Assembly (NCBI GenBank): GCA_001794125.1
Contig: MGJF01000013.1
Span: forward strand, 450-64,449
Direction: 5' to 3'
DNA from: Candidatus Yanofskybacteria bacterium RIFCSPHIGHO2_01_FULL_43_32
GTDB lineage: Bacteria > Patescibacteriota > Minisyncoccia > 2-02-FULL-40-12 > GWA2-44-9
DNA: 64,000 nt
The position numbers and the translations under genes were made by a program. Shown one piece after another: positions 7,192 to 7,620 of this stretch. The notes beneath the pieces were generated by a model, which did no database searches, was not told the origin of the DNA, and saw only the letters and a program-made list of their open reading frames with translations. The first letter of the stretch is position 1. Every line of letters begins with the position of its first letter.

Positions 7192-7620
7192 GACTCCCCT
7201 TCAGGACACATGCCTTCCTCGAACCAGAATAGATTTGCTCCGGCGGCAAATCTTTCTTGTCTCTCGGCGTTTCGCAGAACCAAGCCGAAACGCCTCCGAG
7301 TCCTTCTCTGAAGGCATATGTCCTTTGGGGGTGATAGAGAGATTATACTAAGAGCGAAACCCCGTCCATTTCAGACCTATTGGTTTCGAGGATAACACAA
7401 TGCTTAAATTAACTGATAATTTGCTTAGTTCAACAAATTTTAGCCGGAAAATCCTGAGGTTTTACGAAGGAGGAACGGATGCTAAAATTTGTTAAGCAAA
7501 TTGAGAATTAATTTAAGCATTTGTCCGAAGAAGGCCGGAGGCCGTAATCCAACAGGTCGGAAATGGGTGGGGTTGAGCGAATCTTTTGACTTTATCAAGG
7601 TTTTGTAATAGAATACTCAT
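7192..7620. ncRNA. Copy A of a ~400-nt paralogous structured noncoding element (unknown class)
   Basis: There are multiple local hairpins, at 7231-7253, 7266-7294, 7356-7386 and 7433-7492. Long-range helices include GCTTAAATTA 7401-7410 with TAATTTAAGC 7516-7525, and CCATTTCAGACC ~7368 with GGTCGGAAATGG ~7572. Compared with copy B (23500-23890), paired positions differ by compensatory changes. Strand is undetermined. Confidence 0.55.
7586..7614 (+). promoter_or_regulatory. Sigma70-type promoter TTGACT-N17-TAGAAT driving leaderless rpmE
   Basis: The -35 is at 7586-7591 and the -10 at 7609-7614. The ATG is at 7624, with no room for a Shine-Dalgarno sequence. Confidence 0.55.

Follow-up and report, generated by a model that had tools for sequence, protein, structure and literature searches.

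Fold-conserved modular elements dispersed in groundwater Paceibacterota genomes, a candidate family of structured noncoding RNAs

Our analyses of a 64-kb stretch of DNA (hereafter the window) revealed that two paralogous elements, A (7192-7581) and B (23486-23887), are members of a dispersed multicopy family assembled from modules, D1 and D2, whose structure is conserved, whose folded strand is defined in the case of D2, which is under constraint, and which matches no catalogued RNA. The reading that we favor, tentatively and at somewhat short of an even chance, is that A and B represent a lineage-specific, multicopy family of structured noncoding RNAs of modular build, which probably bind protein, in groundwater Paceibacterota of the candidate phyla radiation (CPR). 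That the fold has been kept over the sequence in an uncatalogued family points to a working RNA. A preceding interpretation of the letters (the sequence-only reading) had described one ~400-nt unit in two paralogous copies. The paralogy of A and B stands, but both belong to a mosaic multicopy family with a third D2-class element in the window, and the unit resolves into two independent modules, each of which can also stand by itself or join other partners, and which may have a gene between them.

Both regions were found where that reading had placed them and were homologous over their entire length upon alignment, with a mean column identity of 79%. The bounds required adjustment; both regions are present, but the conserved part of A stops at ~7581-7585 and B corresponds to ~23486-23887. 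Within the 64 kb, matches to the conserved blocks were confined to A and B (0 expected by chance), and the minimum free energies of the two copies gave z scores of -8.0 (A) and -8.9 (B) relative to shuffled sequences. Inspection of the sequence and its inverted repeats recovered in both copies every helix that had been named. These are hairpin 1 (AGATTTGC/GCAAATCT at 7231-7253 in A; GCTTTTGC/GCAAAAGC at 23526-23548 in B), hairpin 2 (GGCGTTTCG/CGAAACGCC in A versus GGCGCTTGG/CCAAGCGCC in B), a long arm (GCTTAAATTA/TAATTTAAGC in A versus AGTTAAATTA/TAATTTAACT in B), and a closing helix (CCATTTCAGACC/GGTCGGAAATGG). The hairpin-2 loop, CAGAACCAAGC, is indeed the same in A and B. The hairpin-1 loop, also described as identical, differs by one base (TCCGGCG in A versus TCCAGCG in B), and a block taken to be unpaired, GCGAAACCCCG.CCATTTCAGACC, is paired and makes up the 5′ side of the helix that closes D2. 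The 5′ half is itself enclosed by a long-range helix that had been missed (7196-7217 with 7310-7331 in A; GCCAACCGGCTT/AAGCCGATTGGC in B), and its sequences in A and B are wholly unlike.

Module D1 is a three-way junction of ~140 nt. D1 of copy A, given here in + strand orientation, spans 7192-7331, as indicated by sequence, fold, inverted repeats, a covariance model, and covariation. Its closing helix (7196-7217/7310-7331), hairpin 1 (7231-7253, loop UCCGGCG), and hairpin 2 (7266-7294) are underpinned by inverted repeats I3, I8, and I10. D1 of copy B (23486-23627, also given in + strand orientation), located by sequence, fold, and nhmmer, has the outer helix GCCAACCGGCUU/AAGCCGAUUGGC, hairpin 1 at 23526-23548, and the hairpin-2 loop of D1-A. 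The D1 covariance model, R1, scored 152.7 bits at 7187-7335 (A) and 151 bits at 23482-23630 (B). Among 39 D1 pairs, 21 were compensatory across 7 sequences, and 31 in a model-fitted alignment of 8 sequences that takes in L036, a homolog from outside the training set with a score of 56 bits against R1; none of 500 shuffles reached as high (0/500). The D1 pair cells contained 12 G·U versus 10 A·C, a split that favors neither strand and counts against the RNA reading.

Module D2 is a ~230-nt rod with a small side hairpin; the 5′ and 3′ ends of the rod pair with each other in a ~25-bp closing helix, and it also holds a three-way junction, which bears this hairpin, and, at its apex, an internal-loop module. 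D2 of copy A, which we term A-type, spans 7352-7581 on the + strand, supported by sequence, fold, inverted repeats, nhmmer, covariation, and the G·U count. Specifically, GAGCGAAACCCCGUCCAUUUCAGACC (7352-7377) pairs with GGUCGGAAAUGGGUGGGGUUGAGCGA (7556-7581) in the closing helix, the junction is formed by UUGGUUUCGAGG / GUCCGAAGAAG...CGUAAUCCAACAGG, the side hairpin lies at 7533-7543 (GGCCGGAGGCC), and the long arm (7399-7427/7493-7521) leads to the apical module (7441-7484). A search for D2 homologs in the window with an nhmmer profile returned D2-A at 7348-7588 (E 3e-77) and D2 of copy B at 23669-23887 (E 1e-63). The latter, termed B-type (23669-23887, + strand; sequence, alignment, and fold), shares the junction and side hairpin of D2-A, whereas its stems are altered with compensation and its apical module is distinct (GGGAGCAACUCUUGGAGCGGGACC); B-type copies are also present elsewhere, at L002, L008, and L015. 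Between the two types the junction and loop nucleotides are invariant and the stems compensated, and the side hairpin itself covaries (GGCCGGAGGCC, GACAAUAAGUC, GACGAAGUC). Side hairpin aside, the unpaired stretches of the consensus D2 fold are 1-3 nt long.

Covariation, strong in both modules, was assessed with 13-14 homologs from Patescibacteria MAGs and groundwater metagenomes, a phylogenetically narrow set chosen by a search pattern, so that part of the junction looks invariant because the pattern selected the homologs. Over 66 consensus pairs of D2, 98.5% of cells were paired, with double changes in 16 pairs and 52 cells; 0 of 500 shuffles matched this result, and slid controls were only 31-56% paired. 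The pair cells contained 52 G·U versus 5 A·C, and 15 variable columns contained G·U versus 4 with A·C. This excess of G·U over A·C marks the + strand as the one on which D2 folds. Between syntenic genomes, compared in pairs, D2 copies were 87-97% identical versus 52-66% at fourfold-degenerate sites of the flanking genes. Judged from these sequence comparisons, D2 is constrained relative to synonymous sites, although the high identity between genomes could in part reflect gene conversion or recent spread instead of purifying selection. With covariation above all shuffles and all slid controls and this constraint on D2, the data bear out the proposal that selection acts on secondary structure and that A and B are not simply a neutral duplication.

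Three further elements of the family were located in the window. Element C (10220-10443, + strand) is a third, more divergent D2-class rod, identified by sequence, fold, and a local nhmmer match (10297-10347, E 2e-7), with a long closing helix, a small 3′-side hairpin (GCCAAAGGC), a fold z score of -8.9, and an apical module almost the same as that of D2-A (UAGCCGGAAAAUCC..GGAGGAACGGAUGCUA); a homolog lies in L015 (2282-2500). A mini-D2 (59815-59880, + strand), found by sequence and motif scan, consists of the D2 closing helix (CCCCAUUUCAGACC ... GGUCUCAAAUGGG) with a 16-nt loop and a GGUUCGC end, and the same module stands 5′ of D1-D2 in L020. Module D3 (59955-60130, - strand) is a long hairpin closed by GCGAAUGCCCCACCCCGCC/GGCGGGAUGAGGCAUUCGC; comparison with L002 and L004 places it in the same family as the domain directly 5′ of D2 at those loci, and its spacer has a fold z score of -10.4. 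In addition, a bidirectional terminator-like hairpin (23892-23926, AAACAAAAATACGCC-ATCAA-GGCGTATTTTTGTTT), recognized from sequence, fold, and weak terminator-type Rfam alignments and absent from the terminator-scan listing, occupies the gap that separates D2-B from the stop of a convergent RRM-protein gene. It directly follows B and is usable on the + strand, in favor of a noncoding RNA, and could end a + strand transcript of B.

The elements had been left without a class, and covariance-model searches assigned them to no known family. The 4227 models of Rfam 15, run on the whole window at the gathering threshold, returned five tRNAs and nothing else; at E<=10, A and B gave only weak microRNA and sRNA chance matches far under threshold. 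No Rfam match was obtained at the elements in nine homologous loci, nor on elements C and E or the long-D1+D2 locus. Phage and plasmid records showed no similarity, and a full-text literature search turned up no account of elements of this kind from Patescibacteria; an S2-linked RNA of a 2026 preprint concerns Bacteroidota and is a different element. Introns of groups I and II, retrons, attC sites, and CRISPR-type elements were rejected because no host gene, reverse transcriptase, integrase, or array is present and the Rfam intron models were silent.

Among known RNAs, 6S RNA mimics an open promoter by means of a large central bubble set between its closing and terminal stems. D2 resembles 6S RNA in that it is a ~200-nt rod closed by its own ends, and 6S RNA too may have two paralogs per genome. 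However, D2 lacks a large central bubble, at least three D2-class copies lie within 64 kb, and the 6S Rfam models did not match A or B at E<=10. The orphan bacterial noncoding RNA classes OLE, GOLLD, ROOL, HEARO, and raiA, discovered through comparative genomics, are comparable in several respects, namely, a length of 200-400+ nt, several covarying helices, invariant unpaired junction nucleotides, a narrow phylogenetic range, and neighbor genes that do not reveal function. Unlike those classes, with which they share no sequence or structure match, the present elements occur in several copies per genome with shuffled modules. HEARO adjoins IscB, whereas D1 and D2 have no visible associated protein gene, and the HEARO (IscB RNA) Rfam model did not match the elements. 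IS200/IS605 ends and TnpB/IscB omega RNAs would adjoin or overlap a tnpA, tnpB, or iscB gene, or would be non-autonomous copies of such an element in the same genome. No such gene adjoins the copies in the 64-kb window or at the homologous loci, although a trans-acting enzyme may be encoded outside the window.

One MAG contains 3-4 copies of D2, 5 of 9 genome matches lie at contig ends, and contigs of the window organism break within D1. Modules occur as D2 alone, D3-D2, miniD2-D1-D2, long-D1-D2, and D1-gene-D2, and three related genomes with common flanks have unlike module content (L013, L004, and L020). The copy in L018 has a recombinant closing helix, and at one locus (WB versus L001) an A-type copy has taken the place of a B-type one. 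The rpsB-rpmE slot that holds A contains differing inserts without D2 in relatives and is empty in one Yanofskybacteria genome, and in several contexts a distance of 3-17 nt separates the D2 3′ end from the stop codon of a gene running toward it. Mosaic order, contig-end positions, the recombinant copy, and slot turnover are dispersed-repeat traits that count against the RNA reading. Together these observations would suit a dispersed intergenic mosaic akin to BIME/BOX/ERIC or to MITEs. Such selfish or domesticated DNA would spread and recombine among intergenic slots, with any cis function exerted on the transcripts of closely packed flanking genes (as a processing site, stabilizer, insulator, or terminator) and the structure kept because the hairpin is read during spread or once co-transcribed. 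We regard such a repeat as possible, if on balance unlikely.

BIME/REP of enterobacteria, BOX of Streptococcus pneumoniae, and ERIC are mosaic intergenic repeats with modules of 35-130 nt. The D1/D2 family is like them multicopy and intergenic, with modules in varying order, strong folds, positions tight against gene ends or promoters, and a presence that varies among related genomes. In contrast to these repeats, its modules are several-fold larger (140-230 nt versus 35-130 nt), its copy number is apparently low, its folded strand is mostly antisense to its neighbors, and its copies are old and, where syntenic, conserved far above synonymous sites. Three-way junctions, conserved internal loops, and invariant unpaired nucleotides also exceed the features of known repeats; we know of no BIME/BOX/ERIC/MITE-type repeat so elaborate. 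In most copies, no U-tract follows the rod on either strand, and because selection on the D2 fold acts on the strand antisense to those genes that end beside it, D2 in that orientation cannot be their 3′-end stabilizer.

Hallmarks of transposition were likewise missing from the elements. Every strong inverted repeat lies within a single module, D1 or D2, and none links the D1 5′ end with the D2 3′ end as the terminal inverted repeats of a MITE would. The flanks of A (...AAATCAAG and TTTTGACTTTATC...) contain no direct repeat at the junctions, and no target-site duplication was found in the occupied, empty, or otherwise filled slots of relatives. Rather than many near-identical copies, the 3-4 copies of D2 per MAG are 71-93% identical (68-93% by pairwise comparison, with A versus B at 77%), and both the window and CAZPLD01 contain A-type together with B-type. 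Because of this divergence and coexistence, the two types would be old paralogs and not products of fresh transposition. Thus, the simple dispersed repeat without covariation that the sequence-only reading had named as its alternative describes only half of what we observed: dispersal and variation of the rpsB-rpmE slot among relatives are seen, but covariation is present, terminal inverted repeats and target duplications are not, and the copies have diverged.

Mobilization in trans was considered as well. In REP/REPIN-RAYT systems, hairpin repeats of 20-40 nt flank, and are mobilized by, a single-copy Y1 (HUH) transposase gene. The likeness lies in paired changes that keep the hairpins and in strand-specific, single-stranded activity, and close relatives (L038-L040) contain a RAYT-like Y1 transposase (31.8 bits with Pfam Y1_Tnp; 39.8 bits with NCBIfam REP_Tyr_transpos, under the cut-off of 80). 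However, this gene has flanking 23-nt hairpins of its own (GTTTGGAAGTTNAACTTCCAAAC), which are unrelated to the far larger D1 and D2, and a link of D1/D2 to this RAYT was therefore rejected. Neither the RAYT gene nor its 23-nt hairpins occur in the 64-kb window, and no transposase or nuclease was found adjoining any copy.

The link to small or ribosomal genes drawn from the window does not generalize. Neighbors there are rpsB and rpmE at A and a small basic protein gene at B; elsewhere they include FtsH, ParB, SecA, ribonucleotide reductase, a type IV coupling protein, and tRNAs. When the 169 ORFs lying within 4 kb of 20 copies were compared all against all, only syntenic pairs emerged and no neighbor protein recurred. 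The location of A between two ribosomal-protein genes and of B upstream of the small basic protein gene would fit a cis-regulatory leader or riboswitch for rpsB or rpmE (A) or for the small basic protein (B). This explanation is already contradicted, and we hold it to be extremely improbable. Two promoters flank A and both point outward. The leaderless-type rpsB promoter, TTGATT-17-TAATAT, sits between A and rpsB, and the rpmE promoter (7586-7614) lies downstream of A, abutting the element, which ends at ~7581-7585, and not overlapping it as had been thought. Thus, neither mRNA contains copy A. D2 also folds on the strand opposite rpsB and the 117-aa gene, the neighbors differ at every locus, and the orthologous spacer of relatives lacks D2, so the elements are not leaders.

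D2 is antisense to both neighbors in four independent contexts, and a + strand transcript thus needs a promoter of its own. Promoter scans found no sigma-70-type promoter upstream of D1 or D2, and -10-like hexamers upstream of 15 D2 copies were not enriched (mean score 3.0 versus 3.3 in shuffles), results that weigh against the RNA reading. On the folded strand of A and B, a single promoter-like site is conserved, RTAACA-17-GATAAT, which lies inside the D2 5′ arm, is kept in all D2 copies, and matches the consensus at 9 of 12 positions. This site and the lack of a normal RNA-gene promoter are consistent with an explanation in single-stranded DNA (ssDNA), whereby the + strand would fold when single-stranded, as a Frpo- or single-strand-origin-like site, during type IV secretion, competence-mediated DNA transfer, or rolling-circle events. 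The rod would then rebuild a duplex promoter from which RNA polymerase transcribes leftward genes or primes the complementary strand. Frpo elements are described as structured single-strand promoters of 50-350 bp (PMC11541004). D2 resembles them in having a long imperfect one-strand hairpin, -35/-10-like hexamers in one arm, and a folded strand that templates the downstream gene. In ~7 of 9 independent contexts a gene or promoter lies left of D2 on the opposite strand, which makes the + strand the template, as Frpo-type geometry requires; D2 adjoins a type IV coupling-protein gene at L007 and L009; and the strand specificity of the fold would hold for ssDNA, where G·T pairs would be tolerated. 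Nevertheless, we judge the ssDNA explanation quite improbable. Three -35 bases are bulged and the first two -10 bases lie in an internal loop of the consensus D2 fold, whereas the genuine promoters of this genome are near consensus. The context is chromosomal and housekeeping (rpsB, rpmE, tsf, FtsH, ParB, SecA, ribonucleotide reductase, and tRNAs), unlike the leading region of conjugative plasmids, with no plasmid or phage similarity. GC skew and gene orientation indicate that the + strand is here the leading-strand template, whereas it is the other strand that a replication fork leaves exposed. A promoter mimic would need neither the junction, the side hairpin, the tandem G·A motifs, nor the apical internal loops, and D1, C, and mini-D2 lack such hexamers.

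A small-protein gene or type I toxin mRNA (hok-like) was rejected because the reading frame is not preserved among copies. The SD-AUG in the apical module of A-type copies, which B-type copies lack, begins a frame of either 10 or 28+ codons according to 1-nt indels, D2 contains frame-shifting indels (GAGAATTAA, GAGATTAA, GAGGGTTAA), and D1 frames are broken by +2, +2, and +1 indels (L019, L020b) and an 18-nt insertion (L015). Since every candidate ORF is shifted by indels, the elements are not coding.

For the favored protein-binding noncoding RNA, we infer transcription, transcript ends, a protein partner, and a cellular role as follows. The + strand would be transcribed, D1 and D2 would each fold autonomously, and the long terminal helices would protect the ends. 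Invariant nucleotides would offer a surface on which a protein acting in trans could bind or a tertiary contact could form; they comprise UUGGUUUCGAGG, GUCCGAAGAAG, CGYAAUCCAACAGG, CGGAAAA/GSAACGG, and the loops UCCRGCG and AGAACCAAG of D1. Such RNAs would act as stand-alone molecules (ribonucleoprotein or sponge-type) and not as leaders of adjacent genes, with A-type and B-type D2 maintained together in the same genomes as old paralogs. A loop-loop contact between D1 and D2 (CUCCGG/CCGGAG in A) and 8-11-nt complementarities (I6, I9) were dropped since they are absent in B and other copies and occur as often as by chance.

CPR genomes are very small, ~1 megabase, with scant spare DNA, and the RNA biology of these bacteria is, to our knowledge, almost unexplored. 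The fold of the elements is conserved to the same degree as codon positions one and two. Because several noncoding elements of 200-400 nt have been kept, with their fold conserved, in minimal genomes, a function worth the genomic cost is suggested. A more ambitious proposal, which we consider improbable, is that the family represents a new CPR-specific class of modular, self-contained RNAs with a dedicated partner or, alternatively, chromosomal ssDNA promoters or origins. D1, D2, C, mini-D2, and D3 may all have 'GCGAA...UUCGC'-type closing helices, and the partner may be a protein or catalytic, for example, in a ribonucleoprotein system or a ribozyme family that replaces functions missing from minimal genomes. 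In the alternative, such promoters or origins may allow chromosomal genes to be expressed or primed from incoming ssDNA in bacteria with a chromosomal type IV secretion or competence apparatus. The D1/D2 family provides a basis for covariance-model surveys of Patescibacteria genomes and is tractable for pull-down or structural work. If the ssDNA explanation were true, plasmid-type single-strand promoters would extend to chromosomes, and if the elements were repeats, minimal genomes would be shown to harbor a repeat family of unusual ornateness under structural constraint.

Pattern matches at L003, L011/L021, L014, and L016, which have no homology to A or B by blastn or nhmmer, and one match in a viral contig were set aside as chance occurrences. 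The L003 match lies in a stretch that appears coding.

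The sequence-only reading had described two paralogous structured elements of about 400 nt next to small or ribosomal genes. The two regions, 7192-7620 (copy A) and 23500-23890 (copy B), are indeed homologous end to end, with 79% mean column identity over the whole length, and every helix listed in that reading was found in the sequence of both copies. Within the 64 kb, the conserved blocks GTCCGAAGAAGGCCGGAGGCCG and GCGAAACCCCGNCCATTTCAGACC are confined to A and B (expected number, 0), and RNA folding of the two stretches gave z-scores of −8.0 and −8.9 relative to dinucleotide shuffles. 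An additional helix, absent from the earlier list, closes the 5′ half: 7196-7217 pairs with 7310-7331 in A, and GCCAACCGGCUU pairs with AAGCCGAUUGGC in B, the sequence being wholly different between the copies and the pairing retained. The description is nevertheless too narrow, because the elements are modular, have more copies and lie beside varied neighbors. Specifically, the 400-nt element is two modules, the three-way-junction module D1 (7192-7331 in copy A) and the rod-like D2 with its side hairpin (7352-7581 in copy A).

The family exceeds two copies, as the window has more related elements. Element C (10220-10443, + strand; fold z-score −8.9), which the earlier reading did not list, is a third D2-class rod with D2 architecture; its apical module is almost exactly that of D2, it has a small hairpin on its 3′ side and a closing helix of 20 bp, and a homolog is present at 2282-2500 of locus L015. 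The mini-D2 (59815-59880, + strand) consists of the D2 closing helix alone around a 16-nt loop, and beside it lies D3 (59955-60130, − strand), a long hairpin module. Element E (9555-9795, + strand), located upstream of the L25 gene promoter, is a strongly folding intergenic element (z-score about −6.6), a 3′-end fragment of which recurs after D1 in locus L009 (about 255-290).

For homologs elsewhere, species genomes, metagenomes and viral contigs were scanned with a single degenerate pattern, GTCCGAAGAAN{9,17}AATCCAACAGG, and matches without blastn or nhmmer similarity to A or B were discarded as chance. Nine true sites were found in 185,579 species genomes, all in Patescibacteria-type metagenome-assembled genomes (MAGs), including four in one MAG and three in another; many lay at contig ends. 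The metagenomes gave 11-12 true sites, all from Hainich and Rifle-type groundwater samples, and the viral contigs a chance match only. The elements showed no phage or plasmid similarity. An exact look-up of proteins assigned the window to the organism of NCBI assemblies GCA_001794735.1 and GCA_001823375.1, and its S2 protein puts it within Paceibacterota, close to Yanofskybacteria.

In these loci (L-numbers), the modules are variously combined. D1 directly adjoins D2 in A, B, L019, L020 and L026, with a mini-D2 preceding the pair in L020 (order miniD2-D1-D2). D2 stands without D1 in L012, L013 and L025, has D3 as its directly 5′ domain instead in L002 and L004, and follows a longer D1 variant in L008 and L018. 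An opposite-strand gene separates D1 from D2 in L009 and L007, with a truncated case in L022, and L015 has D1 and D2 in opposite orientations. D2 comes in two subtypes, A-type and B-type, which have the junction and side hairpin in common and are distinguished by the apical module and by compensated positions in the stems; the window and MAG CAZPLD01 each have both. The L018 D2 (10176-10461) carries an additional 48-nt hairpin inserted in its long arm; because the 5′ strand of its closing helix is A-type and the 3′ strand L007-type, the outer helix is unpaired, and the copy appears to be recombinant.

The consensus fold of D2, derived from 14 nonidentical sequences, contains 66 pairs, and 98.5% of cells are paired, with double-sided changes at 16 pairs (52 cells). 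The covariation score was 0.200 compared to 0.098 ± 0.008 in shuffles, none of 500 of which reached 0.200; the homolog set as a whole, for D2 and D1, is phylogenetically narrow, and the search pattern itself makes part of the D2 junction invariant. Pairing fell to 31-56% when the 3′ partner was shifted by 1-3 columns. The small side hairpin also covaries (GGCCGGAGGCC, GACAAUAAGUC, GACGAAGUC and GACCGAAGGUC). For D1, 21 of the 39 pairs show double changes among seven seq­uences, and a covariance model built from these seven sequences recovered the L036 homolog, outside the training set, at 56 bits. In the resulting eight-sequence alignment, which is model-fitted and thus biased toward the model structure, 31 of 39 pairs are doubly changed and 91.6% of cells are paired. 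A double-stranded DNA palindrome is expected to show no bias between G·U and A·C. In D2, G·U occupies 52 cells and A·C 5 (15 and 4 of the variable columns, respectively), and thus the + strand of D2 is the strand selected to fold. The D1 counts (12 G·U and 10 A·C cells) favor neither strand.

In syntenic genome pairs, fourfold-degenerate sites of flanking genes are 52-66% identical, near saturation, and D2 is far more conserved (87% for L007/L009, 91% for L005/L022 and 97% for L017/L025). Together with the covariation and the strand-specific fold, this constraint bears out the earlier structural inference. Since copies inside one MAG are only 68-93% identical, they are not fresh transpositions. 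No conserved reading frame was kept across D1 and D2 copies, and a protein-coding reading was rejected: 1-base indels in the A-type apical module shift the frame after an SD-AUG-like site, B-type copies lack this site, and D1 copies carry +2, +2 and +1 insertions relative to one another.

The observation is real, and the elements are not catalogued in Rfam 15, in which no family was matched at any noteworthy threshold. Literature searches turned up no description of such elements. A 6S RNA was rejected, the D2 consensus fold having no 6S-type central bubble, and a MITE-type element likewise, there being neither terminal inverted repeats nor target duplication. We tentatively favor a stand-alone structured putative RNA family whose members would offer a protein or another RNA a conserved surface. 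This fits best because the fold is strand-specific with compensatory evolution in every helix, junction and loop nucleotides are invariant across subtypes, constraint is well above that of synonymous sites, old paralogs are kept together, and each module is closed by its own ends.

The general link to small or ribosomal genes did not hold: neighbors vary across the 20 copies examined, and no protein family recurs, only syntenic pairs clustering. The neighbors are housekeeping genes (rpsB, tsf, rpmE, release factor, FtsH, ParB, SecA, ribonucleotide reductase, M23 peptidase, tRNAs and type IV coupling protein). Copy A exactly fills the space between the −35 boxes of two outward promoters, the leftward rpsB promoter (TTGATT-17-TAATAT, read from sequence) and the rightward rpmE promoter (TTGACT-17-TAGAAT, 7586-7614). 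As both lie outside it, copy A is the leader of neither gene, and these promoter positions make a cis-regulatory leader of adjacent genes very improbable. A convergent gene has its stop codon 3-54 nt from the 3′ end of D2 in four independent contexts, the left neighbor is an opposite-strand gene or promoter in about seven of nine, and a hairpin resembling a bidirectional terminator follows copy B. Promoter scans found none for the folded strand upstream of D1 or D2, and a −10 enrichment test upstream of 15 copies was negative; among + strand sites resembling a promoter, the sole conserved one (RTAACA-17-GATAAT, 9 of 12) is located within the 5′ arm of D2. An Frpo-type function as single-stranded DNA (PMC11541004) would account for the lack of a promoter, for the promoter-like hexamers within D2 and for the leftward neighbors, but is unlikely, as the bulged −35, the housekeeping context and the additional architecture are hard to square with it.

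Several observations concern individual neighbors. An RRM-domain protein whose tail is rich in glycine and arginine adjoins D2 in the window (23931-24278, − strand; B-type D2) and in L001 (4965-5315; A-type D2). L001, a short contig, also carries a group I intron (61-259, − strand; Rfam 64.7 bits) 5 kb from a truncated D2, to which it is apparently unrelated. The release-factor gene after rpmE (7870-8643, + strand) encodes only 257 aa, matching the RF-1 domain and just the C-terminal half of the PCRF domain (profile positions 96-194).

Orthologous rpsB-rpmE loci (L036-L047), fetched via S2 homologs, show that the spacer between the divergent promoters is a variable slot, occupied by D1-D2 in the window. 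L036 and L037 (S2 identity 90%) carry, between the same pair of −35 boxes, a D1 homolog and another rod whose closing helix is similar, showing that D1 can persist there, recognizable by structure only. L039 and L040 (S2 89%) contain an insert of ∼790 nt with inverted repeats at its flanks and a small membrane-protein ORF; in L043 (S2 93%) a comparable insert is accompanied by a small secreted protein, which L041, L045 and L046 (S2 80-91%) have alone, and L042, a Yanofskybacteria genome (S2 77%), has a 168-nt AT-rich spacer. Judged from these differing contents, the slot turns over on a scale of roughly 10% divergence in S2. This turnover, the modular shuffling, the contig-end positions and the recombinant copy speak for the chief rival, a mainly selfish or cis-acting dispersed repeat, which we regard as possible though somewhat doubtful. 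The modules do also behave as dispersed repeats, so that this reading and the favored RNA-family reading overlap.

Between the aldolase gene and the L25 gene, L038, L039 and L040 encode a 239-aa RAYT-like Y1 (HUH) transposase (285-1004, − strand), and one and the same 23-nt hairpin, GTTTGGAAGTTNAACTTCCAAAC, stands on either side of it (258-280 and 1028-1050). These hairpins are unrelated to D1/D2, and neither gene nor hairpin is in the 64-kb window. The window does contain a probable integrated island (34617-44521). Besides a HaeII-type restriction enzyme and a pair of C5 cytosine methylases, it has a Z1/SNF2-type protein and, beside a tRNA (44450-44521), a large serine recombinase (42744-44510); at 40-44 kb the sign of the GC skew reverses.
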